Origin: a virus
Taxonomy: Duplodnaviria > Heunggongvirae > Uroviricota > Caudoviricetes
Length of the DNA stretch: 64,000 nt
Strand: one strand, 5' to 3'
IMG/VR virus record: IMGVR_UViG_3300025887_000009
Position 1 is the stretch's first letter. Every line of letters starts with the position of its first letter. The notes under the pieces are model-generated. The model worked only from the letters and a program-made list of their open reading frames with translations, was not told the origin of the DNA and made no database searches. The translations under genes and the position numbers were made by a program. Of the stretch, positions 15,869-64,000 are shown piece after piece.

Positions 15869-15897
15869 TTGACAACTTAAAGCTTTTCTTATATAAT
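15869..15897 (+). promoter_or_regulatory. sigma70-type early promoter, perfect TTGACA-N17-TATAAT
   Basis: TTGACA 15869-15874, 17-nt spacer, TATAAT 15892-15897. Extended -35 TTGACAACTT. Confidence 0.6.
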
Positions 15898-40939: not shown

Positions 40940-40968
40940 TTGACAACTTGCACAAAGGAAAGTATAAT
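40940..40968 (+). promoter_or_regulatory. sigma70-type early promoter, perfect consensus
   Basis: TTGACAACTT...17-nt spacer...TATAAT at 40963-40968, upstream of the ORF at 41016. Confidence 0.6.
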
Positions 40969-43580: not shown

Positions 43581-44363
43581 ATGCAGTTAGTGCCGCGATA
43601 TTTAGTCAATAACAGAACCGTAGTTGTCTTAGATGAAGCCGGCTTCACCGTGGAGTTCAGACCAGTGTATCAAAGAAACTTATATGTCTACAAAGGAATT
43701 GATAATGTGTTACAATTCCAAGTTAAAAACGCAGACCAAAAGCCAGTTAACATAACATCCTATACACCGAGGTTTGTTGCCTTTGATGAAAATTCAAATC
43801 AAGTGTTAGACATTAATGGTGTTCTTCTTGATGACGATTCGAGCGCAACACGTGGCACGTTTAAAGTAATAATTCCTGAGAACAATTTGCTCAATTTAAA
43901 ACAGCAGTATCTCACTTATAACATTTACATGGAAGATGCAGACAACGAAAAAGTTTTAACTTACGCCAACGAATGGTTTGACGCAACTGGTGTTATATAC
44001 TTGTCGTCTAGAGCTTTTCCTGGACCGCGGGCAACTGGCGAGATTAATACCTTCTCAAAAGTGTCACCAAGTCTTGATGAATGGACAAGTGAAAGTTTAG
44101 ACGCACAGCCTGGCATCAATGGCAACGAAGCATTGCATACTGTAGCGGTGTATACAAGCGAATACACAGGCGATGTAGTAGTACAAGGTACCTTAGAGAA
44201 CCAAGTTACTCCTAACACTGTGTGGGCTGATTTGACTACTCTAACAGCAGCTAACGAAACTGCTCCTATCTACGCAAATTTCAACGGAGTGTTTAGCTAC
44301 CTTAGAGTTAAAACAACGGTAGATCCTGCAGATAAAATCACAAAGATTCTCGTCAGGAATTAA
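43581..44363 (+). CDS. hypothetical protein (260 aa)
   Basis: ORF with no recognised domain. Confidence 0.45.
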   Translation: MQLVPRYLVNNRTVVVLDEAGFTVEFRPVYQRNLYVYKGIDNVLQFQVKNADQKPVNITSYTPRFVAFDENSNQVLDINGVLLDDDSSATRGTFKVIIPENNLLNLKQQYLTYNIYMEDADNEKVLTYANEWFDATGVIYLSSRAFPGPRATGEINTFSKVSPSLDEWTSESLDAQPGINGNEALHTVAVYTSEYTGDVVVQGTLENQVTPNTVWADLTTLTAANETAPIYANFNGVFSYLRVKTTVDPADKITKILVRN

Positions 44364-44364
44364 C

Positions 44365-44393
44365 TTGACAACTTGACCAGGCTGTGCTAATGT
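44365..44393 (+). promoter_or_regulatory. sigma70-type promoter (TTGACA-N17-TAATGT)
   Basis: TTGACAACTT -35 with a 17-nt spacer, upstream of the plus-strand MORN gene pair. Confidence 0.45.
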
Positions 44394-44414
44394 TCTTTTA
44401 AGAAAGGACAATGT

Positions 44415-44762
44415 ATGCGTAATGGATTAATCGTAGACGAAGATGGACCCAAGACTTGGTATCAAAACAATCTACTACATCGCGAAGATGGACCAGCAGT
44501 TGAATGGACAGATGGCACCAAAGCGTGGTATCAAAACAATCAGCTACATCGAACAGATGGACCAGCTGTTGAATATGCAGATGGCAAAAAGGTGTGGTAT
44601 CAAAACGGCCGACTACATCGAATTGACGGACCAGCAGTCGAACATCCAGATGGCACCAAGGTGTGGTATTTCAACGGGGAACAACTTTCATTAAACCTAT
44701 GGTTTGAACAGGTCGACGCCACCGAAGCACGAAAAACATTGATGAGGTTACAGTATGCGTAA
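44415..44762 (+). CDS. MORN-variant (YwqK-like) repeat protein, 3 repeats
   Basis: 23-aa repeats 'WYQNNxLHRxDGPAVEYADGTKx', conserved C-terminal '...TLMRLQYA', and an ATGCGTAA overlap with the next gene. Preceded by a sigma70 promoter. Confidence 0.65.
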   Translation: MRNGLIVDEDGPKTWYQNNLLHREDGPAVEWTDGTKAWYQNNQLHRTDGPAVEYADGKKVWYQNGRLHRIDGPAVEHPDGTKVWYFNGEQLSLNLWFEQVDATEARKTLMRLQYA

Positions 44763-45036
44763 TGGATTAATCGTAGACGAAGATGGAACCAAGACTTGGT
44801 ATCAAAACAATCTACTACATCGCGAAGATGGACCAGCAGTCGAACATCCAGATGGCACCAAGGTGTGGTATCAAAACAATCAGCTACATCGAACAGATGG
44901 CCCAGCTGTTGAATATGCAGATGGCGTCAACCTTTGGTTCCTCAAAGACGTCGAGCACGACTTCAACGAGTGGCTTGAGCGTGTTGACACATGTACAGAA
45001 GTAGAAAAAACAATGATACGATTGCAATATACGTAA
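44755..45036 (+). CDS. MORN-variant repeat protein, 2 repeats
   Basis: First ~85 nt nearly identical to the ORF at 44415. Ends '...TMIRLQYT'. Confidence 0.65.
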   Translation: MRNGLIVDEDGTKTWYQNNLLHREDGPAVEHPDGTKVWYQNNQLHRTDGPAVEYADGVNLWFLKDVEHDFNEWLERVDTCTEVEKTMIRLQYT

Positions 45037-45045
45037 TGGAAAATC

Positions 45046-45074
45046 TTGACAGTACACTGAAATAATGTTATAAT
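45046..45074 (+). promoter_or_regulatory. sigma70-type early promoter, perfect consensus
   Basis: TTGACA 45046-45051, 17 nt, TATAAT 45069-45074. Upstream of the primase gene. Confidence 0.6.
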
Positions 45075-54486: not shown

Positions 54487-55020
54487 CTAGAAAGTTGCAA
54501 AATATCTAGGTTGTCCGAATGTTATTTTCGGGTTGAAAGGAATATCGGACATAATAGAATGAGTCTTTTGAATTTCTATTCGTTCGACTAATTTAGGCCA
54601 GTCATCGGCAAAAAACTCAGTGCTGTACCCAAACCGGTTGTTGCCGCCGCCACTTCCTGTGCCAAGCCGGATGCGACTTCCTTGAAAAAGGTCCTTTGCA
54701 AAAACCGGAAGATTGTGAGTTATACAAAATTCAATTCTTGAACGCCATCCGGGATATCCCCTTGGTGCATCTTTTACTCTGCCGCCCCAGTTGGTCCGTT
54801 TGCCAAACGGGGCACTATGATTGTTCGAAACTACTTCGCTCCAGCGTCCTTCGAGGTAAGTGACTTCAATACGAAAGTCGTTGACTATTCTGTTATACAA
54901 ATATCGATAATTACTATTGTTTCCTAATGCGTTTAACAGGAACACATTGGAATTAATATTAACCCATTCGGCTATTTTTTCAAAGCTAGGTTGTTGCCAA
55001 AGTTCTGCAAATTTGTCCAT
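54487..55020 (-). CDS. hypothetical protein, paralog 1 of the 'SAPFGKRTNWGGRVKDAPRGYPGW' family
   Basis: Shares a conserved core and a 71-bp DNA-identical segment with the ORF at 55340. A sigma70-like promoter lies upstream on the minus strand. Confidence 0.5.
   Translation of the reverse strand: MDKFAELWQQPSFEKIAEWVNINSNVFLLNALGNNSNYRYLYNRIVNDFRIEVTYLEGRWSEVVSNNHSAPFGKRTNWGGRVKDAPRGYPGWRSRIEFCITHNLPVFAKDLFQGSRIRLGTGSGGGNNRFGYSTEFFADDWPKLVERIEIQKTHSIMSDIPFNPKITFGQPRYFATF
54744..54814. repeat. 71-bp perfect direct repeat, copy 1 (copy 2 at 55531-55601)
   Basis: Identical string gccatccgggatatccccttggtgcatcttttactctgccgccccagttggtccgtttgccaaacggggca inside both paralogs. Confidence 0.8.
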
Positions 55021-55052
55021 TGTACTAATTTCTATATTGTTGCAATTATCTT

Positions 55053-55081
55053 ATTGTAGCATGTCTGTTAACGTATGTCAA
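55053..55081 (-). promoter_or_regulatory. sigma70-type promoter on minus strand (TTGACA-N17-TACAAT)
   Basis: rc of 55076-55081 gives TTGACA. rc of 55053-55058 gives TACAAT. Upstream of the ORF at 54487..55020. Confidence 0.5.
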
Positions 55082-55339
55082 TAGAAATTATAAATATGCA
55101 TATGAAGTTTAAAGAATTTGCCATTGCCGAAGACCCTGTATCAAGTTCATGGATTGCTGATTTAACATTAGTCAATGGACCGAGCGGAGACATTACTATG
55201 GCGTTAGGAAACGGTCGCCGGTATCGTGTAAGAAGAGCCGGGGAACAAGTTTACCAGGCGTGGATGCAAGCGGGCAGTAAAGGTCAGTTCTGGCACAGTA
55301 ATGTTAAGAACCAATTTGTTACCGTCCGCTTGATGTAAG

Positions 55340-56053
55340 TTATTTCTGACTTAGAATGTCTAGTGTTCGTGATTTTGCAAGACCAGGCCAGTCATCTTCA
55401 AAGAGTTCCACCGTGTATTGAAATTTAAGGCCACCGCCCCCGCCACTTCCTATGTTGATTCCAGTGTTATTGAACATATTAGTAGTGAAGCTAGGCACTT
55501 CATGACTCATTGTAAAACTAATAGAACCTTGCCATCCGGGATATCCCCTTGGTGCATCTTTTACTCTGCCGCCCCAGTTGGTCCGTTTGCCAAACGGGGC
55601 AGAATGCGAGTTGCTTACATTATTGCTATAATTGAGTACAAGTCTAGTAACAGTGATGTTAAAATCACAAATAATACTCTCTAGATATTTTCGGTCGTCT
55701 GCAAAACTGTCTAGGATTATGTTATTGATAAAAAATTCTGGATTCATTTCGATCCATTGAATAATATTGTCAATACTAGTTTGGTTCCTTAGATTCTCTA
55801 ATTTTCGTTGCCAACGTTGCTTTGAATTATTTCTACGAATAGTAGTCGCGCGGTACTTTTGCAGATGCGTCACGTATGCACGTTTTGTACTGTAAATTTT
55901 ATTAGTAAACGGGCAACGATATGCCTTGCCGACTTTTGCTTCCTCAAATGGAATAACTAGTCCATTTGCTTTGTATACTTTAATTGCTGGCATTGTCTTC
56001 TCTCTGTGTATGTTTCTTTTGTTCACAATAGCAGGTGCAATATTAGATGTCAA
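55340..56053 (-). CDS. hypothetical protein, paralog 2 (with N-terminal extension)
   Basis: Same core 'NSHSAPFGKRTNWGGRVKDAPRGYPGW...GSGGGGG'. Extra ~90-aa basic N-terminus. Confidence 0.5.
   Translation of the reverse strand: MTSNIAPAIVNKRNIHREKTMPAIKVYKANGLVIPFEEAKVGKAYRCPFTNKIYSTKRAYVTHLQKYRATTIRRNNSKQRWQRKLENLRNQTSIDNIIQWIEMNPEFFINNIILDSFADDRKYLESIICDFNITVTRLVLNYSNNVSNSHSAPFGKRTNWGGRVKDAPRGYPGWQGSISFTMSHEVPSFTTNMFNNTGINIGSGGGGGLKFQYTVELFEDDWPGLAKSRTLDILSQK
55531..55601. repeat. 71-bp perfect direct repeat, copy 2
   Basis: See copy 1. Confidence 0.8.
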
Positions 56054-56058
56054 GAAAA

Positions 56059-56328
56059 TTATAGATTGTTTTTAAGTAAAAACAATGTGAGTTCTTTTTC
56101 CGAGCCCACAAACTTTGCATAACGTTCTTTATTTTTTTGGAAAACAGAAAATCTTTGAGTCCATAGCCAGTCTTCGAAATGCCTGCCTCTGATAGGACAT
56201 TGCCGGCTAACATGTTTGTATGTGTAACGTGCAGGGTACCTGTAATTAATATCAGAATGATTTACACGGACTAACCATTGTTGGTATAGAGAATCTAGTG
56301 CCTCTGGAGGTAATACGTATTCTTTCAT
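56059..56328 (-). CDS. hypothetical early protein
   Basis: Packed ORF. Confidence 0.4.
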   Translation of the reverse strand: MKEYVLPPEALDSLYQQWLVRVNHSDINYRYPARYTYKHVSRQCPIRGRHFEDWLWTQRFSVFQKNKERYAKFVGSEKELTLFLLKNNL

Positions 56329-56585
56329 TTTTTGTATTCTGGGTCAACATCAAGCAACTTGGTTTCACAAGTTGCAGTGAATTTGTTTGTAGGGAACATC
56401 AATAACACTGCGTTGTCTGGATCAACTCGATAATGATTTTCAATATCTTCAATCATTAATTTAGTAATTGTCTGACATTGATCAAGTGTCTGTCCTGCAA
56501 AGCCCATTGTTAATACAACCTTGCCTGCAAAATAAAGCGTTGCCCAATATGTCATAGATATTTCTTTAACTGCTTTGCATAACAA
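56325..56585 (-). CDS. hypothetical early protein
   Basis: Packed ORF with a 4-nt overlap. Confidence 0.4.
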   Translation of the reverse strand: MLCKAVKEISMTYWATLYFAGKVVLTMGFAGQTLDQCQTITKLMIEDIENHYRVDPDNAVLLMFPTNKFTATCETKLLDVDPEYKK

Positions 56586-56770
56586 GTATCATCAATCTTC
56601 TTGATGCTAAAGTTATTGTCTACTAATGTTTGTATTACGTCTCGCTTAAGAACATTAACTGTAAACACAGTAGGGGATCCTCCCCAAGGTTTTGTGCTAC
56701 GATCAGTAATGCGCATGTCGTCTACATAAATTGAACCATTCTTAAGCACTTCGAGTTTTACAGTTTTCAT
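56552..56770 (-). CDS. hypothetical early protein (first gene of the leftward block)
   Basis: RBS AAAGGAGACTGTAATG and a sigma70-like promoter upstream. Confidence 0.4.
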   Translation of the reverse strand: MKTVKLEVLKNGSIYVDDMRITDRSTKPWGGSPTVFTVNVLKRDVIQTLVDNNFSIKKIDDTCYAKQLKKYL

Positions 56771-56795
56771 TACAGTCTCCTTTGTGTAAATTTAA

Positions 56796-56824
56796 CGTAT
56801 ACTATTTTTTTTAATCGATGTCAA
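56796..56824 (-). promoter_or_regulatory. sigma70-like promoter on minus strand (TTGACA-N17-TATACG)
   Basis: Heads the leftward early block (ORF 56552..56770). Confidence 0.4.
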
Positions 56825-57052
56825 CCGATTACGCATACTTTACTACAACCTATTTGTGTGTTAAAACATTTTGGCCAACAGCTTCGGCCAAATCCTGTCC
56901 CACTGCGTGGTAGTGTATCGCCTGCGTTGTCCTAGACGAGAATTAAATTCAACAGTAGTGCCGTCGCTTGATACATGAAACATTCTATAATCCTATGTTG
57001 CTTTTATTTTATATAATTTACTGTAGCACAAATACGCAATAGATGTCAAGAA

Positions 57053-57080
57053 AAAAGAGCCCCTAAAGGCTCTTTTTGTT
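57053..57080 (-). terminator. bidirectional hairpin terminator ending the leftward SPFH operon
   Basis: AAAAAGAGCC-CCTAAA-GGCTCTTTTT, with A-run and T-run flanks. Confidence 0.65.
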
Positions 57081-57095
57081 TGCATGTGTTGTGAA

Positions 57096-58469
57096 TTATT
57101 TAAATCGCGGTGCTTCTTTTGCTGCGCGGTCTTCCAGGTTCTTCAGTGCGCCGAGCGTAGTAAACACATCAAGTGATGTTGGTGCTTCTGCGCCGCTACC
57201 GCCGCTGTAGAAGTCTGGCATGTCAATAGTAACATCTTTCAGCGCAGGGTACATAACCCGAGCAATGTCACGTTCGATTTCTGCCATATAGATATCCTTA
57301 GCTGATTGCTTTGCACTCAATTTAGCAAGTTCAACATCTGCTTCGGCTAGACCCTTTTCGCGGATTGCCATACCTTCAAACTTTGCAGCTTGTGCAGCAG
57401 CTTCTTGGATACCGCGGTTAGCTTCGGCAATAGCAAGTTCCTTTTCCTTTTGGATCACAGCAACATCTTTCTCTTTTTGTTGCTTTACAAGTTCTTGCAA
57501 GGCTTGCTGGCGCTCTACTTCAACACGTTGCTGACCTTGGATAGTTGCAAGTTCTTTTTCCTTCTGAGCATCTTGAATAGCTTTTTGCTTATCAATTTCG
57601 CGCTCTTGCTTTGCTGCTTCTGCCTTTACACGGTTTGTGTCGATTTCCTGTTGAGCAGTAATCTTTTCACCAACCGATTGACGCTTTCGGTCAAGCAATG
57701 TTTCAAGTTGAGAATCTGCTGTAGGTTTACCAATTGTTACCTGCGTAACTTGGATACCGTATTCTGCCATAGGATTCTCAAGTCGCCGAGGTTGTCCCGA
57801 AGTCTCGTCAATGACGATCACATTTTTCATCACAAGTCGAATTTCGTTTTCAACAAGATTAGCGTTTGAGTTTGTGCTTGATACATCAGCATATCCGCTT
57901 TCTGTAACTTCAACTTGCTGTCGCTTTGTTACATATAGACCATTTGAAAGTTGATCTTCCATTTGTGCTTTGTAAGCGTTAACTCCACCTTGGATGAATT
58001 CTTCACCTGTGTACTGAGTTGCTGTAACAACTGCAACGTTGCGAGAGTTGTTAACAAGCAAAGTATCTACCAAGTTGTCAAAGCTTCGGAAATCTTGGTG
58101 CAGCTTTCGGAAGTTCTCTTCATCTACAGGCAAACGATAACGGAACGTTGCAGGAACTGTGCCTGTGTAAGTATCCGCAAAGCCGACATTAATTGCACCA
58201 AGGTTTCGAGTAAAGTTACCGTCTTCCATGGTCATATCAATTGTTGCAACACGTTTGTATTCATAGATATTAGTAAACAATGGCATCTTCAAGTGCACAC
58301 CCGGTTCCGAGTAAACAGTAGTAGAGCCCGTGAGTTTGTTTTGCACATAGTACAAATACCCTTCACTGGTAGTAAACCAAGTCGAAAGTGCCACGAATAG
58401 AACTACTACAGATGCTACTGCGTATTTTGCAAATCGTTTTACCATATTCGTAAATTCTTTATCATTCAT
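57096..58469 (-). CDS. SPFH/band-7 (flotillin-like) membrane protein
   Basis: N-terminal TM 'YAVASVVVLFVALSTWF', an SPFH-type domain, then a long Q/E/K/A-rich coiled coil with EA-rich stretches. Terminator downstream. Confidence 0.75.
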   Translation of the reverse strand: MNDKEFTNMVKRFAKYAVASVVVLFVALSTWFTTSEGYLYYVQNKLTGSTTVYSEPGVHLKMPLFTNIYEYKRVATIDMTMEDGNFTRNLGAINVGFADTYTGTVPATFRYRLPVDEENFRKLHQDFRSFDNLVDTLLVNNSRNVAVVTATQYTGEEFIQGGVNAYKAQMEDQLSNGLYVTKRQQVEVTESGYADVSSTNSNANLVENEIRLVMKNVIVIDETSGQPRRLENPMAEYGIQVTQVTIGKPTADSQLETLLDRKRQSVGEKITAQQEIDTNRVKAEAAKQEREIDKQKAIQDAQKEKELATIQGQQRVEVERQQALQELVKQQKEKDVAVIQKEKELAIAEANRGIQEAAAQAAKFEGMAIREKGLAEADVELAKLSAKQSAKDIYMAEIERDIARVMYPALKDVTIDMPDFYSGGSGAEAPTSLDVFTTLGALKNLEDRAAKEAPRFK

Positions 58470-58481
58470 TTGTTTAGTTCC

Positions 58482-58742
58482 TTATTGAGTTTTCTGAAAA
58501 CATTCCATGCCCATGTACGGTGCATGATCTGCGTTACCGATTGCAACAGTACAGAATGTATTTTCATCATTTTCTGTCTGCCATTCGTACACACGAAAAT
58601 CAAATCCGTATGCTTCGACTTTGTAAGCTGAACTCTCTTTAGACGGCCACTTTGATGTAGCCAACTGATCGAACAATCCTGCTTGAGCAGATGCTACACT
58701 GAGTGCTAGTCCTGCCACAAGTCCAAATAGTACCTTTTGCAT
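58482..58742 (-). CDS. small secreted protein (signal peptide)
   Basis: 'MQKVLFGLVAGLALSVASAQA' signal peptide with an AxA site. Confidence 0.5.
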   Translation of the reverse strand: MQKVLFGLVAGLALSVASAQAGLFDQLATSKWPSKESSAYKVEAYGFDFRVYEWQTENDENTFCTVAIGNADHAPYMGMECFQKTQ

Positions 58743-58810
58743 TTTATCTCCATGCGTTGTTTTGTGTAAGTTAACACTAGCAGGTATAAGTTATAATGTC
58801 AACCTTTATT

Positions 58811-59083
58811 TTAAAGCAATTCACCTTCTTGGATTTCAATATGATAACTTCCTAGATCATATTCGATTTCTGCGCGGTCCTCATCGTCTATATCTGCAGA
58901 GTCAAGGTCGTCAGTGATTTTGAGATTGTATTCACTGTAGATGTTAGCTTTAACAGCATCCTGGGCCAGCTGCATTGCTTTCTCGTATGTAGTTGCAGCA
59001 ACCCATGGAGTATAAAACGTATTCCAATTCTCGCGATCGCCGCCTTCTTCGCGGTCATAGAATGCAATATAGATTTTAGTCAT
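58811..59083 (-). CDS. small acidic protein (90 aa)
   Basis: ORF in the same leftward operon. Confidence 0.4.
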   Translation of the reverse strand: MTKIYIAFYDREEGGDRENWNTFYTPWVAATTYEKAMQLAQDAVKANIYSEYNLKITDDLDSADIDDEDRAEIEYDLGSYHIEIQEGELL

Positions 59084-59096
59084 CTTGTAATCCTTT

Positions 59097-59272
59097 TAAG
59101 ATGTGCGCAAAGGCACGTTGGTTTGTGAATCAATGTAATCGCCTTTGTAGAAACGACGAGTGGTTGTAGTGCGAACTGTAGTACCATCAGGTTTTGATCG
59201 ATAGGTTATAAGTTCTTGCATGATGATGTCATCGCATGGATCTTCCATCATTGTTTTATATGGGTCAGACAT
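59097..59272 (-). CDS. small protein (58 aa; below ORF-track cut-off)
   Basis: ATG (rc) at 59272 with AAGGA 9 nt upstream. 'MSDPYKTMMEDPCDD...'. Confidence 0.3.
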
Positions 59273-59313
59273 TTTGTTTTTCCTTTTGTTTTGTGTACAT
59301 ATAGCTTTGTTGA

Positions 59314-59595
59314 TTACGCATATTGTAACCTCATTAATGTTTTTTCTACTTCGGTGTATGTGTCGACTAGTTCAAGCCACTCGTCAAATAAAAGTGGTTT
59401 GCCTTTATAAAACCAATGTCGGTCGCCATTTGTATATTCAGCTGCTGGGCCGTCAACACGATGCAGTCGGCCTTCGAACCACCAACTGTATTCGCCATTT
59501 GCATATTCAACTGCCGGTCCATCAGTTCTGTGCAGCAATCCGTCTTGATACCAATACCGGTCGCCGCTTGCAAGTGTAGCTACTCCATTACGCAT
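59314..59595 (-). CDS. MORN-variant repeat protein (2 repeats)
   Basis: Last gene of the array. 'MRNGVATLASGDRYWYQDGLLHRTDGPAVEYANG...TLMRLQYA'. Confidence 0.65.
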   Translation of the reverse strand: MRNGVATLASGDRYWYQDGLLHRTDGPAVEYANGEYSWWFEGRLHRVDGPAAEYTNGDRHWFYKGKPLLFDEWLELVDTYTEVEKTLMRLQYA

Positions 59596-60142
59596 ATTGT
59601 AACCTCATTAATGTTTTTTCTACTTCTGTGTAATTGGCGTGTTCGAGCCAATCAATGAAGTTGTACTCGACGCCTCTGAAGTACCAAAGCTTAGAACCAC
59701 TTACGCGGTCAACTGCCGGACCGTCGGTTCGGTGTAATTCTCCGTTTTGATACCAAGCCCGATCGCCATTTGCGTATTCAGTTGCTGGTCCAGCTGTTCT
59801 GTGTCGTTGATTGTTTTGATGCCACTCCTTGGTGCCACTTGCGTATTCAACTGCTGGTCCGTCAATTCGATGTAGTTCTCCGTTTTGATACCACATCTTA
59901 GTGCCATTTGCACGTTCAGCAGCTGGGCCATCAGTTCTGTGTCGTTGCCCGTTTTGATACCACTCCTTATCACCATCTGCAAATTCGATTGCTGGTCCGT
60001 CAATTCTATGTAGTAAGCCGTGTTGATACCACTCCTTGTTGCCATCTGGGTATTCAACTGCTGGCCCATCGTCGCGATGTAGTAGACCGTTTTGATACCA
60101 AAACCGGTCGCCGGATTTGTTTGTGATCATTCTATTACGCAT
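59588..60142 (-). CDS. MORN-variant repeat protein (6 repeats)
   Basis: 23-aa repeats. 8-nt ATGCGTAA overlaps on both sides. Confidence 0.65.
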   Translation of the reverse strand: MRNRMITNKSGDRFWYQNGLLHRDDGPAVEYPDGNKEWYQHGLLHRIDGPAIEFADGDKEWYQNGQRHRTDGPAAERANGTKMWYQNGELHRIDGPAVEYASGTKEWHQNNQRHRTAGPATEYANGDRAWYQNGELHRTDGPAVDRVSGSKLWYFRGVEYNFIDWLEHANYTEVEKTLMRLQYA

Positions 60143-60551
60143 ACTGCAACCTCAACATTGTTTTTTGTACTTCGTTGAAAGCGACCTCTTCAAGCCAGTC
60201 ATTAAAAAAAAGTGGTTCATTTTTAAGGAACCAACGCCGGTTGCCATTTGCGTATTCAATAGCTGGTCCGGTGGTTCTGTGTAGTAGATCATTTTGATAC
60301 CAATACCGGTCGCCCGCAGCGAATTCAACTGCTGGTCCATCTGTTCTGTGTCGCTGGCCGTGTTGATGCCACTCTTTGCCGCCACTTGCATATTCAGCTG
60401 CTGGACCATTAGTGCGGTGTAGTCGGCCTTTAAAATACCAATGCTTGTCGCCGTTGTGCCATTCAACTGCTGGTCCATCTGTTCTGTGTCGTCGGTCGTT
60501 TTGGTACCAAATCTTGGTGCCATTTTTGTCTACGATCAATCCATTACGCAT
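60135..60551 (-). CDS. MORN-variant repeat protein (4 repeats)
   Basis: Same repeat family and C-terminal 'TMLRLQYA'. Confidence 0.65.
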   Translation of the reverse strand: MRNGLIVDKNGTKIWYQNDRRHRTDGPAVEWHNGDKHWYFKGRLHRTNGPAAEYASGGKEWHQHGQRHRTDGPAVEFAAGDRYWYQNDLLHRTTGPAIEYANGNRRWFLKNEPLFFNDWLEEVAFNEVQKTMLRLQYA

Positions 60552-61098
60552 ACTGCAACCTCAACATTGTTTTTTGTACTTCTGTGTAATTGACGTGTTC
60601 AAGCCAGTCATTTAAAAAAAACGGTTCACTTTTAAGGAACCAACGCTGATTGCCATTTGCGTATTCAATAGCTGGTCCATCTGTTCGGTGTAGTTGATTG
60701 TTTTGATACCAATACCGGTCGCCGCTTGCGCGTTCAATCGCTGGGCCATCTGTTCTGTGTCGTCCGTTGTGTTGATACCAATACCGGCCGCCGCTTGCGC
60801 GTTCAATCGCTGGGCCATCTGTTCGATGTAGTCGGCCTTCGAAATACCACTCCTTGTCGCTGTTGTACCATTCAATCGCTGGGCCATCTGTTCGATGTAG
60901 TCGGCCTTCGAAATACCACTGCTTGGTGCCATCGTTCCGTTCAATCGCTGGTCCATTTGTTCTGTGTCGTTGCCCGTGTTGATACCACTCCTTGCGGCCA
61001 TTTGCATATTCGACTGCTGGTCCTTGGTCTCGATGTAGTAGATCATCTTGATACCACACCTTAGCACCTTGAATGTCTACGATCAATCCATTACGCAT
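60544..61098 (-). CDS. MORN-variant repeat protein (6 repeats)
   Basis: Same repeat family. Confidence 0.65.
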   Translation of the reverse strand: MRNGLIVDIQGAKVWYQDDLLHRDQGPAVEYANGRKEWYQHGQRHRTNGPAIERNDGTKQWYFEGRLHRTDGPAIEWYNSDKEWYFEGRLHRTDGPAIERASGGRYWYQHNGRHRTDGPAIERASGDRYWYQNNQLHRTDGPAIEYANGNQRWFLKSEPFFLNDWLEHVNYTEVQKTMLRLQYA

Positions 61099-61645
61099 AC
61101 TGCAACCTCATCATTGTTTTTTCTACTTCGGTGATGTTAACAAGTTCAATCCAGTCGCCAAAGGAACACCTAACGCCTTCGAAGTACCACTTTTTGGTCC
61201 CACTTGAGCGCTCAATAGCTGGGCCATCTGTTCGGTGTAGTTCTCCGTCTTGATACCACACCTTTTTGCCAGTTGCATATTCAATCGCTGGGCCATCAAT
61301 TCGATGTAGTCGGTTGTGTTGATACCACTCCTTGGTGCCACTTGAGCGCTCGATTGCCGGGCCATCTGTTCGATGTAGTTCTCCGTCTTGATACCACACC
61401 TTTTTGCCAGTTGCATATTCAACTGCTGGTCCGTCAATTCGATGTAGTTCTCCGTGTTGATACCACTCCTTGGTGCCATCTGCGAATTCAACTGCTGGTC
61501 CGTCAATTCGATGTAGTTCTCCGTTTTGATACCACTCCTTGTGGACATCTGCATATTCAACAGCTGGACCATCCGTTCGATGTAGTTGGCCGTTTTGATA
61601 CCAAGTCTTGGTTCCATCTCCTTCTATGATCAATCCATTACGCAT
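61091..61645 (-). CDS. MORN-variant repeat protein (6 repeats)
   Basis: Same repeat family. Confidence 0.65.
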   Translation of the reverse strand: MRNGLIIEGDGTKTWYQNGQLHRTDGPAVEYADVHKEWYQNGELHRIDGPAVEFADGTKEWYQHGELHRIDGPAVEYATGKKVWYQDGELHRTDGPAIERSSGTKEWYQHNRLHRIDGPAIEYATGKKVWYQDGELHRTDGPAIERSSGTKKWYFEGVRCSFGDWIELVNITEVEKTMMRLQYA

Positions 61646-61985
61646 ATTGTAACCTCATTAACGTTTTTTGTGCTTCGGTATAATCGGTGTGTTCAAGCCA
61701 TTGGTCGAAGCTGTATATATCGCCTTTGATGAACCACAACTTGGTGCTGCTTGAATGTTCAACTGCTGGACCATCTATTCTGTGTCGTTGCCCGTGTTGA
61801 TACCACTCCTTGGTGCCATCGCTCCATTCAGCTGCTGGTCCATCTTCGCGATGTAGTAGATTGTTTTGATACCACATCTTGCGGCCATTTGGATATTCAA
61901 CTGCTGGCCCGTCAACACGATGTAGTTCTCCGTTTTGATACCAAGACTTAGTGCCATTTTCGGTTATGGTCAATCCATTACGCAT
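61638..61985 (-). CDS. MORN-variant repeat protein (3 repeats)
   Basis: Same repeat family. The first ~60 nt are identical to the next gene. Confidence 0.65.
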   Translation of the reverse strand: MRNGLTITENGTKSWYQNGELHRVDGPAVEYPNGRKMWYQNNLLHREDGPAAEWSDGTKEWYQHGQRHRIDGPAVEHSSSTKLWFIKGDIYSFDQWLEHTDYTEAQKTLMRLQYA

Positions 61986-62325
61986 ATTGTAACCTCATTA
62001 ACGTTTTTTGTGCTTCGGTATAATCGGTGTGTTCAAGCCATTTGTCGAAGCTGTACCTGATGCCTTTGATGTACCAATACCGTTCGCCATCTGTATATTC
62101 AACTGCTGGGCCATCTGTTCGATGTAGCTGATTGTTTTGATACCAAAAATGATTGCCATTTGGATATTCAATAGCTGGTCCGTCAATTCGATGTAGTTCT
62201 CCGTTTTGATACCACTCCTTATCGCCATCTGCAAATTCGATTGCTGGTCCATCGGTTTGATGCAGTAGATTGTTTTGATACCAAGACTTAGTGCCATTTT
62301 CGGTTATGATCAATCCATTACGCAT
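61978..62325 (-). CDS. MORN-variant repeat protein (3 repeats), first of array
   Basis: RBS AGGAAGAAATATG on the minus strand. Same repeat family. Confidence 0.65.
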   Translation of the reverse strand: MRNGLIITENGTKSWYQNNLLHQTDGPAIEFADGDKEWYQNGELHRIDGPAIEYPNGNHFWYQNNQLHRTDGPAVEYTDGERYWYIKGIRYSFDKWLEHTDYTEAQKTLMRLQYA

Positions 62326-62352
62326 ATTTCTTCCTGATATTCCCGGGTTTGC

Positions 62353-62724
62353 TTATAGCAATATTTCTGGCCAAATTGTTACAGAAGCAACCACTAGTAC
62401 AAGTGCTACAAGCACAAGCGCTACAACACTGGATGTATTGGATTGTGTAATGGTTACTAACTTAGTTGGATCTGGTTCAGCTTTTGAACGCTTGCCACGA
62501 TACGCAACTGATATAGTACGATGATATGTATTGACTGTAACGTTCTTTACTGAACAGTTATTCCCACTAAACACTCGATCGATATATTCCCCCGCTGGTT
62601 CGTATACAGTTTTGTGAACAGGGTTCCACGAATGTCGATTGTCAGAAACAACAACCCACCCAGCATCATCCTCGTCATAATAAATCGGGATCACCGCTAC
62701 CTTATCTCTCACAGTAATATCCAT
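62353..62724 (-). CDS. tail-anchored membrane protein (123 aa)
   Basis: Start at internal Met 'MDITVRDK' with AAAGGA 8 nt upstream. C-terminal TM 'VVALVLVALVLVVASVTIW'. A sigma70-like promoter lies upstream on the minus strand. Confidence 0.5.
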   Translation of the reverse strand: MDITVRDKVAVIPIYYDEDDAGWVVVSDNRHSWNPVHKTVYEPAGEYIDRVFSGNNCSVKNVTVNTYHRTISVAYRGKRSKAEPDPTKLVTITQSNTSSVVALVLVALVLVVASVTIWPEILL

Positions 62725-62755
62725 AGTAGTTCCTTTATACTCTAATTGCTGTACG

Positions 62756-62784
62756 ACTATAACACGGAAAGCGCAACCTGTCAA
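62756..62784 (-). promoter_or_regulatory. sigma70-type promoter on minus strand (TTGACA-N17-TATAGT)
   Basis: rc of 62779-62784 gives TTGACA. rc of 62756-62761 gives TATAGT. Drives the membrane protein and MORN array operon. Confidence 0.5.
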
Positions 62785-62928
62785 GAGAAAGCAGCGTAGC
62801 TGCCTCAGCAAAAATTTTTTAGACGTTTAATGTACATGCTTTTTCTACACCCACTCACAGAAGCTGCGCTTCTCGTCGTAGGGTTCCGAAACGCAGTATA
62901 GCTCAGATTCTTTTCTTAGAAACTCGCT

Positions 62929-62947
62929 ATTCTCTAAGTTAGAGAAT
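62929..62947. other. 9-bp inverted repeat hairpin overlapping the stop of the ORF at 62939..63193
   Basis: ATTCTCTAA-g-TTAGAGAAT. T-run follows on the plus strand. Confidence 0.35.
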
Positions 62948-63193
62948 TTTGTTCTCTTCTATGTTAACAGTATAGTAGTCGGAGTACCGTGAACCCAGAA
63001 GTTCGAATAGTACAAGAGTAGCATCGCTTGCGCGTGTGTGCTCTAAGACTAGTTTGTAATCATCTTCACGGTGCACGGTTCTAGGTGAGCCACTGTGGGC
63101 TATGGTGTTAACAAGGTTACCGACTATTCGCTTGCTGAGTGCAGGCATGGTTTTAAGAGCTGGGGTGAAGTTGATGTTGTATATGGTTCTCAC
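62939..63193 (-). CDS. hypothetical protein (84 aa)
   Basis: ORF at the edge of the non-coding repeat region. A hairpin overlaps its stop. Confidence 0.35.
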   Translation of the reverse strand: MRTIYNINFTPALKTMPALSKRIVGNLVNTIAHSGSPRTVHREDDYKLVLEHTRASDATLVLFELLGSRYSDYYTVNIEENKIL

Positions 63194-63534
63194 AGTGTAT
63201 ATATCATCTTACACTGTATGCTATGGTACTCGTCTGGTGCAGTCTGCACCATTCGCAGCTGGCTTCGTTCGCTTCGCGACTCGAGCTGAGTCAGCTTCGC
63301 TTTTGTGTAGTGCCCGAAATGGGTCCTGCGTGTTCTTAAAAATTTCCCGCGCAGTTTTTTATGGTGAAGTACTTATAGATGGTAGGTGGTGATTCTGCAT
63401 CACCCAGTTTTAAAAATGTTGATTTAAATTTGAAATTAAATAATTTGAAATCCGTTTAGCGTTTAGTGTTGTAAAGCAAATAATTAATTTATATACCCCG
63501 ACCCCCCTCTTTTTTTATTTTTTATTTTTTTATT

Positions 63535-63570
63535 TTTGTTTGTTACTTTGTTTGTTACTTTGTTTGTTAC
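63535..63570. repeat. 3 x 12-bp tandem repeat TTTGTTTGTTAC in AT-rich non-coding region
   Basis: Perfect triplication, preceded by T7/T6/T7/T5 runs. Confidence 0.8.
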
Positions 63571-63604
63571 TATACATATACTGTACACTACTGCGCTACG
63601 CATT

Positions 63605-63646
63605 GCAAGCACTAATATAATTTATTTTAATGCATTTAGTGCTTGC
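63605..63646. repeat. 11-bp perfect inverted repeat GCAAGCACTAA / TTAGTGCTTGC with 20-nt AT-rich loop
   Basis: Arms at 63605-63615 and 63636-63646. Confidence 0.75.
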
Positions 63647-63648
63647 GC

Positions 63649-64000
63649 TAGTGCTGCGCAACTGCTATAACATATGTATAGCAACGCAACAAACAGCAAA
63701 GTAGCACAGTATGTACACAGCAACGCATTACGCAAACTACACAACGCAAAAGCGCGCAAACATTGCACAAGCAGCATTGTACGCAAAGCTTATTAAAAAG
63801 CTTAACAAGTACAACGCAAAGCACAACACAAACTACGTGCTGCAAGCAACAACACAAGCTAGCGTATGCAATACGCAAGTGTACGTAACACTTGCAATTA
63901 CTTGCAAAAAGTATAAGCAAGCTGTTAAGTTGTTTAACAAAACAGTAAGTGCGTTTTACAAGCAACTTAACGACTCGCACGATTCTAACAGCTTTGTTGT
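63649..64000. other. strand-biased A+C-rich (T-poor) low-complexity non-coding region with recurring ACGCAA/GCAAGC words
   Basis: No plausible ORF. Only a Cys-rich antisense artefact ORF is present. Composition is unlike the rest of the genome. Confidence 0.5.

Follow-up and report, generated by a model that had tools for sequence, protein, structure and literature searches.

A predicted transcription unit of a marine jumbo myovirus that joins a MORN-like repeat-gene array with an SPFH protein gene

Organization of the unit

The window, that is, the whole 64,000-nucleotide stretch of DNA analysed here, carries on its minus strand (positions 62784–57052) a compact co-directional unit with short intergenic gaps, located in a small-ORF region of a marine jumbo myovirus. 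The features of the unit are collected in Table 1. The ORFs, the sigma70 promoter (62784–62756), and the strong bidirectional terminator described in an earlier note on this DNA are all present where that note placed them, every ORF on the minus strand.

Table 1. Features of the unit, in the direction of transcription, and the second array of the same family. L060 is a relative with 97% SPFH identity; L073 is a contig 99.35% identical to the window.
Feature	Positions	Strand	Description
Weak hairpin with T-rich tail	62788..62806	-	dG -9.3 kcal/mol; directly upstream of P1
Promoter P1	62756..62784	-	sigma70-type, TTGACA-17-TGt-TATAGT, extended -10, 11/12 with TG; conserved in L060
TA123	62353..62724	-	123-aa ORFan; predicted C-terminal transmembrane segment (hydropathy)
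R1	61978..62325	-	115 aa, 3 units; recombinant of L073 paralogs 1 and 3
R2	61638..61985	-	115 aa, 3 units; repeat paralog
R3	61091..61645	-	184 aa, 6 units; DUF6745 at 43.8 bits
R4	60544..61098	-	184 aa, 6 units; repeat paralog
R5	60135..60551	-	138 aa, 4 units; repeat paralog
R6	59588..60142	-	184 aa, 6 units; repeat paralog
R7	59314..59595	-	93 aa, 2 units; sole array member with a positional counterpart in L060
s58	59096..59272	-	58-aa small ORF; kept only in strain-level relatives
s90	58811..59083	-	90-aa small ORF, very acidic (pI 4.05, net charge -15)
Internal promoter P2	58774..58802	-	TTGACA-17-TGc-TAGTGT; same class as P1; upstream of the SP86 gene
SP86	58482..58742	-	86-aa protein, predicted secreted; signal peptide, AQA↓G cleavage motif
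SPFH/Band-7 protein	57096..58469	-	457 aa; N-terminal TM helix, SPFH domain, long coiled coil
Bidirectional intrinsic terminator	57052..57077	-	unit end; hairpin AAAAAGAGCC-TTTAGG-GGCTCTTTTTT
Second mini-array	44415..45036	+	same family; 115 aa + 93 aa, 8-nt overlap; own promoter 44365–44393

The promoters of the region belong to a uniform class, TTGACA with a TGn-extended -10, with sites at 62784, 58802, 57049, 56053, and 55081, and the third of these (57049–57020) directly follows the terminator. P2 is kept in relatives, and its counterpart in L060 reads TTGACA-17-TATTGT (10/12 with TG). The region holds 16 promoter-like matches, no excess over the 20.0 expected from shuffles, so the support for the promoters comes from their quality, intergenic position, and conservation rather than from their count. 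The terminator hairpin has a dG of -15.3 kcal/mol (z = -4.4), none of 200 shuffles folds as well, and the A-run before it and the T-run after it make it bidirectional. The weaker hairpin before P1, whose L060 version is flagged as terminator-like, is probably the end of the preceding unit.

The proposal that these genes form one operon is borne out in part. A co-directional unit runs from promoter to terminator, but P2 lies within it and the array holds two weak hairpin+T8 sites (T-runs at 60621 and 60211). With its genes closely packed in one direction between a sigma70-type promoter and a terminator, amid many such promoters, the unit fits an early operon, the "early" label being based solely on promoter type.

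Two of the non-repeat products have the envelope features that had been attributed to them. The hydrophobic segment of TA123 reaches a Kyte-Doolittle 19-residue mean of 2.97 at residues 99–117 of 123, consistent with C-terminal anchoring. TA123 is strain-specific: its only database relative is an identical copy, and no relatives have been found among viral contigs. SP86 has the signal peptide expected of it and two Cys conserved in all 14 aligned members of its family. Together with the SPFH protein, these two are predicted to be membrane or periplasmic proteins.

The repeat proteins and their array

Each of R1–R7 consists of 2–6 strictly phased 23-aa units followed by a conserved two-helix tail. 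The 30 units keep a perfect 23-aa register and have the consensus WYQNGxLHRtDGPAvEyaxGxKx. Neighbouring genes overlap by 8 nt at a common junction, ATGCGTAA, and Tandem Repeats Finder reports periods of 69, 138, and 207 nt along with gene-scale periods of 340 and 409 nt. In relatives, the proteins range from 69 to 230 aa in steps of 23 aa.

The AF2 model of R1 (pLDDT 95.6) predicts a MORN-type beta-hairpin sheet. When this fold is searched against the PDB, the top ~35 matches are MORN proteins without exception, with moderate scores (TM about 0.45, E about 1e-3). Among viral proteins, it comes closest to uncharacterised phage proteins and to giant-virus "MORN repeat" proteins. On the other hand, Pfam MORN (PF02493) does not match the repeat proteins and MORN_2 reaches only E = 0.11. 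The best Pfam match is DUF6745 (PF20530), with R3, R6 (36.6 bits), and R1 (31.2 bits) above the cutoff of 27 and the other paralogs under it. The "MORN" name given to these genes in the earlier note is therefore valid for the period and the predicted fold, but the Pfam MORN model does not bear it out. Database relatives number more than 7,000, most of them annotated DUF6745, and some carry RING fingers (PF13639, PF13923) beside the repeats.

A hydropathy search for a hydrophobic segment or signal peptide has found neither in the repeat proteins, which are predicted to be soluble since they lack a hydrophobic segment. The literature contradicts the claim of a membrane-organising role for MORN repeats: one study found no binding of TbMORN1 to membranes or vesicles and describes MORN repeats as protein-protein interaction modules (PMC7725318). 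This study and the RING fingers found alongside the repeats in some relatives point to a protein-binding role.

One alternative is that the repeat proteins are envelope or virion binding modules, either cell-wall-binding domains or structural decoration, instead of cytoplasmic host-interaction factors. MORN repeats do occur in phage endolysins (PMC9238414), and the second mini-array directly follows a 260-aa ORF (43581–44363) that looks like a candidate structural protein. The absence of a signal peptide and TM segment speaks against such a role, as do Pfam and PHROG profile searches, which have found no fused catalytic or structural domain, the lack of any structural annotation of the family in PHROG, the host-type promoters, and the small-ORF setting. 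This alternative is judged highly improbable. The mini-array also adjoins replication genes, namely a DnaB-type helicase gene and, in our reading, a putative Toprim/primase-like ORF.

A second alternative holds that the array is repetitive or selfish DNA without function, or an artefact of assembly, and that its ORFs do not encode meaningful proteins. Repeats mis-assemble readily, short-read viral assemblies under-recover MORN-repeat genes (PMC9238414), and L073 has nine repeat genes where the window has seven, a difference that could be assembly collapse in one source. However, each of the window's nine repeat paralogs has an intact reading frame that strictly keeps the 23-aa phase, and synonymous divergence exceeds non-synonymous divergence. 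Most paralog pairs have synonymous p-distances of 0.5–0.7 and a pN/pS of about 0.6. These values and the intact ORFs mark the paralogs as functional genes, most pairs being old duplicates; a pN/pS below 1 gives no direct evidence of positive selection. The same architecture also recurs across independent samples and across distant contigs (45–65% identity), the structure model is highly confident, and the database relatives are numerous, which leaves this second alternative with hardly any credibility.

The array most likely grows and shrinks by homologous recombination between paralogs, as a birth-and-death repertoire. The crossover between L073 paralogs 1 and 3 that gives R1 maps to a 34-nt identical stretch, and close relatives have 1, 7, or 9 repeat genes at the position of the unit. 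R7 shares 65% DNA identity with its L060 counterpart, compared with 85–94% for the downstream genes; this low value may come from replacement by another paralog and not from diversifying selection.

The SPFH protein

The last product of the unit had been described as a flotillin-like SPFH protein. Its SPFH identity, TM helix, and coiled coil are upheld, with matches to Pfam Band_7 (57.1 bits, cutoff 23.6, 3e-15) and phrog_11908 (4e-70); no NCBIfam family is matched at E <= 0.01, and a sequence search of the PDB gives no match. The structure model is of moderate quality (pLDDT 77) and has coiled-coil helices at 253–331 and 339–389. Foldseek matches it to HflK/C, erlin, prohibitin, flotillin, vault, and stomatin, the best match being 7vhq (E = 8e-11). 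As modelled, the protein is a generic cage-type member, closest to HflK/C and not specifically flotillin-like.

K11, R12, and K15 are located directly N-terminal of the TM helix. Positive charges on this side of the anchor lead to a predicted periplasmic SPFH domain, and by the positive-inside rule, the only basis for this orientation, the protein is probably N-in/C-out. Marinobacter and Marinobacterium chromosomes encode homologues with 52% identity, suggesting gene exchange with marine Gammaproteobacteria.

SPFH proteins in general form cages, and the HflK/C cage is periplasmic (PMC12624060). Instead of being aimed at a host complex such as FtsH, a phage cage could be a general membrane stabiliser or superinfection-exclusion barrier that keeps the inner membrane intact or blocks the entry of secondary-phage DNA during the long jumbo-phage cycle. 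Bacterial SPFH proteins have been linked to membrane stress and repair (PMC8581546), SPFH genes recur in unrelated lytic phages (T5-like Ceto, N4-like vibriophages, crAss-like phages), and a sigma70-type promoter precedes the SPFH gene both in the window and in another locus, L064. Yet the sequence fits the FtsH-target and stabiliser readings alike, and a literature search has found no paper establishing a role for any phage SPFH protein. A stabiliser or barrier is a possible but rather unlikely explanation.

Conservation of the unit among relatives

The earlier note had proposed that TA123, the array, SP86, and the SPFH protein form one module for membrane remodelling, superinfection exclusion, or an anti-abortive-infection role. 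In such a module, the repeats would attach to the membrane or to the SPFH scaffold. The genes do lie within one promoter-terminator unit with short gaps, and three of them encode predicted envelope proteins. L073 keeps the order of array, small ORFs, and SPFH gene, and one repeat gene lies upstream of SPFH in L060. Comparison with relatives argues against this proposal. SPFH is absent within ±10 kb of the repeat family at all 54 viral loci, and repeat genes are found at two of 15 SPFH loci (eight lineages), only those of the strain-level relatives L060 and L063 with 97% SPFH identity. At nine loci with SPFH identities of 90%, 82%, and 56–71%, and in Vibrio phage Ceto, no other gene of the unit lies within ±10 kb, and the called genes at three Marinobacter SPFH loci include no repeat-family gene. 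Within the s58-s90-SP86-SPFH cassette, only SPFH has been found in more distant relatives, there in other neighbourhoods.

The layout of L060 points in the same direction. The promoter is kept and drives one repeat gene and SPFH, while the TA123 body and six repeat genes are missing. A nine-gene array lies in a separate transcription unit with its own promoter and terminators; between it and SPFH are terminator-like hairpins and a gene on the opposite strand. Comparable arrays occur in dozens of unrelated large viral contigs, and across 41 array-bearing loci neither a recurrent partner gene nor an enrichment of TM neighbours has been found. With paralogs next to replication genes elsewhere in the genome and the repeat proteins free of membrane segments, the single module has become improbable. 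Predicted co-transcription of array and SPFH is kept in three strain-level variants; hence a lineage-specific functional link between them may exist.

Proposed roles of the unit

Based on the lack of co-occurrence, the L060 layout, the copy number in L073, and the dispersed mini-array, the favoured reading (probability roughly 0.6) is that the unit is a mosaic of a repertoire of protein-binding scaffolds and an independent SPFH cage. It would consist of three independently evolving pieces, i.e. TA123, the tandem array, and the s58-s90-SP86-SPFH cassette, with array and SPFH sharing a transcript by genomic accident and not by functional need.

In this mosaic, the repeat proteins would be cytoplasmic scaffolds made as infection starts. 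Binding host proteins for takeover or counter-defence, they would make up a diversifying repertoire, and unequal recombination would tune the gene copy number and unit number of the array. The SPFH protein would insert N-in/C-out. As all SPFH proteins of solved structure do, it would then form a domed homo-oligomeric cage, here on the periplasmic side of the inner membrane, fencing off a membrane patch or a host membrane complex, for which HflK/C-FtsH is a precedent. SP86, served by P2, may be a strain-specific accessory.

Comparison with known systems

The phage repeats share the 23-aa period of MORN proteins (TbMORN1, TgMORN1, MORN4, the SETD7 N-domain, junctophilin), and each unit is similarly predicted to form a beta-hairpin and loop within an elongated sheet. 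Position by position, GPA corresponds to GxG, G9 to G10, and the aromatic strand WYQNG to YEGEW, and TbMORN1 likewise consists of repeats only. The phage proteins differ in their signature residues (HR-DGPA), their very short length (93–184 aa), their two-helix tail, and their encoding as tandem gene arrays. The match to DUF6745, a family of unknown function on which a literature search has found nothing, is repeatedly limited to profile positions of about 62–102 of 206, so only the repeat portion is in common.

Giant viruses also carry clustered paralogous repeat-protein genes (MORN, ankyrin, FNIP, and others) in very large genomes (PMC5753266). The viral fold neighbours include "MORN repeat" proteins of Harvfovirus, Hokovirus, Pandoravirus, and Mimivirus, and one repeat-family locus (L052) is on a giant-virus MAG contig. 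Unlike those families, the array belongs to a tailed jumbo phage with a bacterial host, its genes are tiny, with translation-coupled overlaps and sigma70-type promoters, and its copy number differs between 99%-identical genomes.

The SPFH protein falls with a phage set of the phrog_11908 kind that includes Vibrio phage Ceto gp164, the N4-like VBP47/pYD6-A, crAss001, and the T4-like 44RR, Aeh1, and RB43. Its identity to the Ceto and N4-like vibriophage proteins is 31–36% over about 90% of the length. As in these phages, it is an accessory gene of a lytic phage, but here it is preceded by the gene for SP86, no counterpart of which has been found beside the other SPFH genes at the loci compared. 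With HflK/C, it shares a single N-terminal TM anchor with preceding positive charges and an SPFH domain followed by a long coiled coil, whereas the phage has a single gene rather than a heterodimeric pair and its coiled coil is longer.

Genomic setting and transcription of the unit

The window belongs to a jumbo myovirus, and its products include a 1082-aa tail sheath protein, the large terminase, the major head protein, and helicases of DnaB type and other types. The major head protein is 72% identical to its counterpart in Vibrio phage 2.275.O (349 kb) and 68–71% identical to those of PA5oct-like Pseudomonas phages, Escherichia phage A4, Xanthomonas phage XbC2, and Sinorhizobium phage Phosso. 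A near-identity search at the DNA level (megablast) found no match to 57000–62900 in the phage collection. Two metagenomic contigs, L073 (208 kb) and L074 (192 kb), are 99.35% identical to the window over 62328–54000.

The minus strand between ~49 and 64 kb is crowded with small ORFs, and five promoters listed in the table (P1, P2, and three further ones) belong to one uniform host-type class with a perfect TTGACA, a spacer of 17–18 nt, and TGn-TAnnGT. Judged from these features, the region resembles an early region read by the host RNA polymerase. An Rfam scan of 55000–64000 gave no RNA families. Elsewhere, the plus strand carries three perfect sigma70 consensus promoters amid structural and replication genes, and two short tandem repeats have been observed near the end of the window, the first in a non-coding-looking stretch upstream of the unit.

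All of the ORFs listed in the earlier note are present in the window, as are the promoter (P1) and the terminator proposed there. P1 is kept base for base in the relative L060 despite different downstream genes, and the weak hairpin immediately upstream of P1 has also been flagged in L060. The terminator is bidirectional, since an A-run and a T-run flank the hairpin, and another TTGACA promoter follows it directly. The intergenic gaps in the unit are 12–68 nt, and every gene is preceded by a Shine-Dalgarno-like sequence. A second promoter of the same class as P1, P2, is found inside the 68-nt gap before the signal-peptide ORF SP86; therefore, the unit has two promoters. The P2 counterpart in L060 and L063 is nearer to consensus (TATTGT, 10/12). 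A lenient scan also gave two weak hairpin+T8 tracts in the tail-coding parts of the repeat genes R4 and R5, which could act in attenuation or partial termination or could be slippage-prone sites. The operon reading is thus supported by the arrangement of the promoter, the co-directional genes, the short gaps, and the terminator, with the caveat of the internal P2 and the two weak hairpin+T8 sites.

Coordinates of the unit and of other features in the window
Feature	Position	Strand	Remarks
Unit under study	62784–57052	−	
Weak hairpin	62806–62788		immediately upstream of P1
P1	62784–62756	−	TTGACA-17-TATAGT; 11/12, extended −10 TG
TA123	62353–62724	−	123 aa, C-terminal TM (predicted)
R1–R7	62325 down to 59314	−	seven tandem repeat-protein genes
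T8 runs in R4 and R5	60621, 60211		weak hairpin before each
s58	59096–59272	−	
s90	58811–59083	−	90 aa
P2	58802–58774	−	TTGACA-17-TGc-TAGTGT
SP86	58482–58742	−	signal-peptide ORF
SPFH	57096–58469	−	457 aa
Terminator hairpin	57077–57052		−15.3 kcal/mol, z = −4.4
Further host-type promoters	57049, 56053, 55081	−	same class as P1
ORF before mini-array	43581–44363		260 aa
Second mini-array	44365–45036	+	own TTGACA promoter
Mini-array gene 1	44415–44762	+	115 aa
Mini-array gene 2	44755–45036	+	93 aa
Consensus sigma70 promoters	15869–15897, 40940–40968, 45046–45074	+	TTGACA-17-TATAAT, 12/12
12-nt tandem repeat	63535–63571		TTTGTTTGTTAC x3.1, perfect
26-nt repeat	63819–63871		x2.1

The repeat proteins

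The seven repeat proteins show 57–69% identity to the first one (R1), and all of them start with MRN and end with RLQYA. Together they hold 30 repeat units in an exact 23-aa register (2, 3, 4, or 6 units per gene) with the consensus W-Y-Q-N-G-x-L-H-R-t-D-G-P-A-v-E-y-a-x-G-x-K-x, and the gene lengths of their relatives step by 23 aa (69, 92/93, 115, 138, 161, 184, 207, and 230 aa). Successive repeat genes share an 8-nt overlap, ATGCGTAA, which places the stop of each gene within the beginning of its successor. Nested periods of 69, 138, and 207 nt within genes and of 340 and 409 nt between genes have been identified with Tandem Repeats Finder.

The MORN label of the earlier note stands for the period and the predicted fold but not for the Pfam MORN profile or the signature residues. 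The 23-aa register and the 69-nt DNA period agree with the MORN period of 23 residues. The AlphaFold2 model of R1 (pLDDT 95.6) consists of beta-hairpins followed by two C-terminal helices, and the predicted structure contains the beta-hairpin and loop units and the elongated antiparallel sheet of the MORN fold. The about 35 best PDB neighbours of the model are MORN proteins without exception, including TbMORN1, TgMORN1, PfMORN1, MORN4, SETD7, junctophilin, and radial-spoke and central-pair MORN proteins, with moderate scores (E about 1e-3 to 1e-2, TM 0.40–0.46, probability 1.0). The Pfam MORN profile (PF02493) gave no matches to the repeat proteins even at E <= 10, and MORN_2 (PF07661) stayed below its cutoff (E = 0.11, 13.2 bits vs 29.6). 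The structure-based MORN signature opens with GxG and has G10 and YEGEW at positions 13–17 (PMC7725318), whereas the repeat family has GPA, G9, and WYQNG at 13–17 (indexed from GPA), which is analogous and not identical. Therefore, we use the term “MORN-like”, which is right for the period and the modelled fold and does not place the proteins in the sequence family itself. The best Pfam match is DUF6745 (PF20530), for which R3, R6, and R1 score above 27 bits with only profile positions ~62–102 of 206 matched; R2, R4, R5, and R7 do not reach the cutoff. No literature on DUF6745 was found.

One alternative is that the repeat proteins bind the envelope or the virion. The proteins lack a hydrophobic segment (maximum 19-residue hydropathy <= 0.33), a signal peptide was not seen, and most of them are mildly acidic; they should be soluble and cytoplasmic. 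Membrane binding by TbMORN1 was not found, so lipid or membrane binding is an unreliable defining property of MORN proteins (PMC7725318). Binding to the envelope or virion is less well supported than a role as cytoplasmic scaffolds.

A database search gave more than 7,000 related proteins, nearly all unnamed and mostly labelled DUF6745, some of them with RING fingers. In IMG/VR, 54 loci have been identified, many on contigs of 100–520 kb and one on a giant-virus MAG. At 41 of these there are genes with at least two repeat units, typically in tandem arrays of up to 13 genes, each array with its own shared N-terminus and C-terminal tail. The closest locus is a nine-gene array on a 317-kb contig, which shares the MRNGL start and the 8-nt overlaps with the window array. 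A pattern-limited scan of 185,579 species genomes returned 17 loci only, scattered and mostly on short MAG contigs. Among viruses, the fold neighbours are uncharacterised proteins from uncultured tailed phages, Agrobacterium phage Atu_ph07 (several paralogs), and Celeribacter phage P12053L, as well as giant-virus ‘MORN repeat’ proteins. Giant viruses are known to have MORN multigene families (PMC5753266), and short-read marine viral assemblies under-recover MORN-repeat genes 37-fold (PMC9238414).

A second mini-array of the same family, with the same 8-nt overlap, is present on the plus strand of the window. It is followed by a putative Toprim/primase-like ORF and lies upstream of the DnaB-type helicase gene.

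Turnover of the array

Most paralog pairs have a synonymous p-distance of 0.5–0.7 and a pN/pS of about 0.6. Recent amplification has been rejected for most paralogs on the basis of these distances and kept for R1/R2 and R4/R5 (about 0.1). Most repeat paralogs are, by this measure, old duplicates, and R1/R2 and R4/R5 alone look recently duplicated or converted. The array could also be viewed as junk or as an artefact. The old divergence and the pN/pS of about 0.6 argue that the repeat genes are maintained and are not junk, and this reading is less well supported.

L073 and L074 have nine repeat genes where the window has seven. Up to alignment column 263, the window R1 equals paralog 1 of L073/L074 at all diagnostic sites; from column 298 onward, it equals paralog 3 (3/3 diagnostic sites). 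From the alignment, the R1 junction is read as a 686-bp two-gene deletion by recombination in a 34-nt identical stretch of the tail-coding segment. The database protein P0031 appears to be another recombinant, judged from its tail sequence in alignment A4.

In L060 and L063, the SPFH proteins of which are 97% identical to that of the window, the order is the kept P1, the first ~8 codons of TA123, a single 93-aa repeat gene, and s58-s90-SP86-SPFH. A separate nine-gene array is located upstream of a block homologous to window 62708–63993. This array has a promoter of its own, hairpins that resemble terminators, and an opposite-strand gene in between. R7 is the only array member with a positional counterpart in L060, to which it shows 65% DNA identity, while the next four genes show 85–94%. 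The L060 copy has an N-terminus common to another L060 paralog, which suggests paralog replacement. Within L060 3571–9131, the homologous block, which carries u84, an opposite-strand 106-aa gene, and the promoter, is placed between the nine-gene array and the single repeat gene. This order arose either through insertion of the block into an array or through movement of the array across it. Upstream of the L060 array (59–2582) there are rIIB-like, Macro-domain, and Thg1-like (tRNA-His guanylyltransferase family) genes, which are typical accessory genes of this group of jumbo phages. By these comparisons, the unit offers a clear natural case of a MORN-like multigene family that evolves by birth and death in a jumbo phage.

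Linkage of the array and the SPFH gene

The earlier note had joined TA123, the array, SP86, and a flotillin-like SPFH protein into one early module for membrane remodelling or exclusion. The linkage has been assessed by tblastn with all window proteins as queries. SPFH is the only unit gene present in loci L001–L005 and L064–L069, where its neighbours are a thymidine kinase and an HD-domain protein, or a DNA ligase. In L064, the gene has its own unit (terminator, promoter, 185-aa gene, SPFH, terminator), and the 185-aa gene has neither an evident signal peptide or hydrophobic stretch nor an NCBIfam match. No SPFH gene is found within ±10 kb of the repeat-family loci (0/54). Repeat genes accompany SPFH at 2 of 15 SPFH loci, both of them 97% relatives (L060 and L063), and a repeat-family gene is absent among the called genes of the Marinobacter loci. 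No recurrent neighbour family of the arrays emerged in 41 loci, and TM-containing neighbours are not enriched (33/297 ORFs).

The proposed tail anchor of TA123 is supported by a predicted C-terminal TM at residues 99–117 of 123 (Kyte-Doolittle mean 2.97), and a comparable hydrophobic segment was not seen at the N-terminus of the translation. No relatives were found in viral contigs, and among 5.8 billion proteins only an identical copy was returned; TA123 is, by these searches, an ORFan. An integrated membrane module, which would take the shared unit and the predicted membrane proteins together, is less well supported than separate roles, and the co-occurrence data (0/54, 2/15, an ORFan TA123, and no recurrent neighbour) do not support a functional module. 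From these comparisons, the unit is a mosaic. Its make-up shifts between phages that are nearly identical, and array and SPFH do not form a conserved pair.

SP86 belongs to a small family of predicted secreted proteins of ~80–100 aa (57 cluster representatives), most with AxA-type signal peptides. A 14-sequence alignment shows two invariant Cys and the motif YKVEAYGxDxRVYEW. SP86 has been rejected as a general SPFH partner since it is absent from every other SPFH locus, and only strain-level relatives pair them.

The small protein s90 is extremely acidic (pI 4.05, net charge −15), and its composition recalls that of DNA-mimic anti-restriction proteins. No family matched it, and homologues were found in strain-level relatives only. 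The PADLOC defence models gave no matches for SPFH, SP86, s90, s58, R3, and TA123 and therefore lend no support to a defence or anti-defence label. NCBIfam gave nothing useful for the genes of the unit.

The SPFH protein

The assignment to the SPFH class is supported by a match to Band_7 (PF01145) of 57.1 bits against a cutoff of 23.6 (residues 34–279) and by a match to phrog_11908 (4e-70). At E <= 0.01, Pfam gave nothing besides Band_7 and a weak DUF7876, and NCBIfam gave no families. A sequence search of the PDB returned no matches; therefore, a fold search was needed. The model (pLDDT 77) shows an N-terminal helix (3–28), an alpha/beta domain, and long helices (253–331 and 339–389), and the N-terminal hydrophobic core covers residues 17–35. 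The predicted model and its fold matches agree with an architecture of anchor, SPFH domain, and coiled coil. In Foldseek, the protein matches all of the cage-forming assemblies (E 8e-11 to 1e-5), with HflK/C as the best match (8e-11), followed by erlin, prohibitin, flotillin, vault (MVP), stomatin, and QmcA. The flotillin-like label had to be dropped, as there is no flotillin-specific Pfam or NCBIfam match and flotillin structures rank below HflK/C, erlin, and prohibitin.

The TM helix has K11, R12, and K15 before it and few charges after it. By the positive-inside rule, the protein would be N-in/C-out with a periplasmic domain, as in HflK/C, the SPFH domain of which is periplasmic (PMC12624060). 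Oligomerisation into rings or domes on the membrane is general among SPFH proteins (PMC12624060), and by analogy the phage protein may assemble into oligomers.

The closest relatives of the protein are on phage contigs (97%, 90%, and 82% identity), and other viral contigs show 56–71%. At ~52%, the relatives are chromosomal genes that stand alone in Marinobacter, Marinobacterium, and related bacteria, and those at 23–36% are found in Vibrio phage Ceto, N4-like vibriophages, Aeromonas phages, and crAss-like phages. No papers on a tested function of any phage SPFH were found. The Marinobacter homologue (L070–L072) has genes for an ATP-dependent DNA ligase and for a nucleoside deoxyribosyltransferase as neighbours. 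On phage contig L068, a DNA ligase gene is directly before SPFH and a deoxyribosyltransferase gene is ~3 kb upstream. This hints at an exchange of a ligase-SPFH block between phage and host.

Proposed roles and comparison with known systems

The best-supported mechanism treats the array and SPFH separately. MORN repeats are protein-protein interaction modules (PMC7725318), and the repeat proteins may serve as cytoplasmic protein-protein interaction scaffolds from the first minutes of infection. Unequal recombination would tune their number and composition, which would suit a host-interaction or counter-defence repertoire. A broader proposal is that the nested architecture (69-nt units in genes, genes joined by the 8-nt overlap) is a phage ‘genomic accordion’, in which unequal recombination would continually make new copy numbers, unit numbers, and chimeric paralogs and so yield an evolvable repertoire of decoys or of binders of host proteins (e.g. 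against defence systems) in jumbo phages and in parallel in giant viruses. We consider this proposal rather unlikely.

The MORN-SPFH ‘membrane module’ is not worth pursuing as a unit, and two separate tractable questions are left. The first concerns the MORN-like mini-proteins, a very large family with almost no annotation that forms multigene arrays in jumbo phages and giant viruses. The window and its near-identical relatives catch the turnover of such an array in the act. The recombinant junction falls in a 34-nt stretch between 99.35%-identical genomes; therefore, the copy-number dynamics and the selective value of the array are directly testable.

The second concerns SPFH, an uncharacterised viral protein of predicted cage type, and phage SPFH proteins recur in unrelated lytic phages. 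The window protein may form a periplasm-facing dome that would fence off a host complex or a patch of the inner membrane, for which HflK/C-FtsH is the precedent. HflK and HflC have NCBIfam models and a heterodimer partner gene, whereas here there is neither and SPFH is the single such gene in the unit. Likewise, SPFH-NfeD operons (e.g. QmcA-YbbJ) have an adjacent NfeD gene, whereas here the neighbouring ORFs have no Pfam or NCBIfam match, and no NfeD-family gene is listed beside SPFH in the relatives. The window SPFH has close homologues in marine Gammaproteobacteria that can be cultured, and its predicted periplasmic topology is like that of HflK/C; it is a reasonable entry point to the role of a predicted viral membrane cage.
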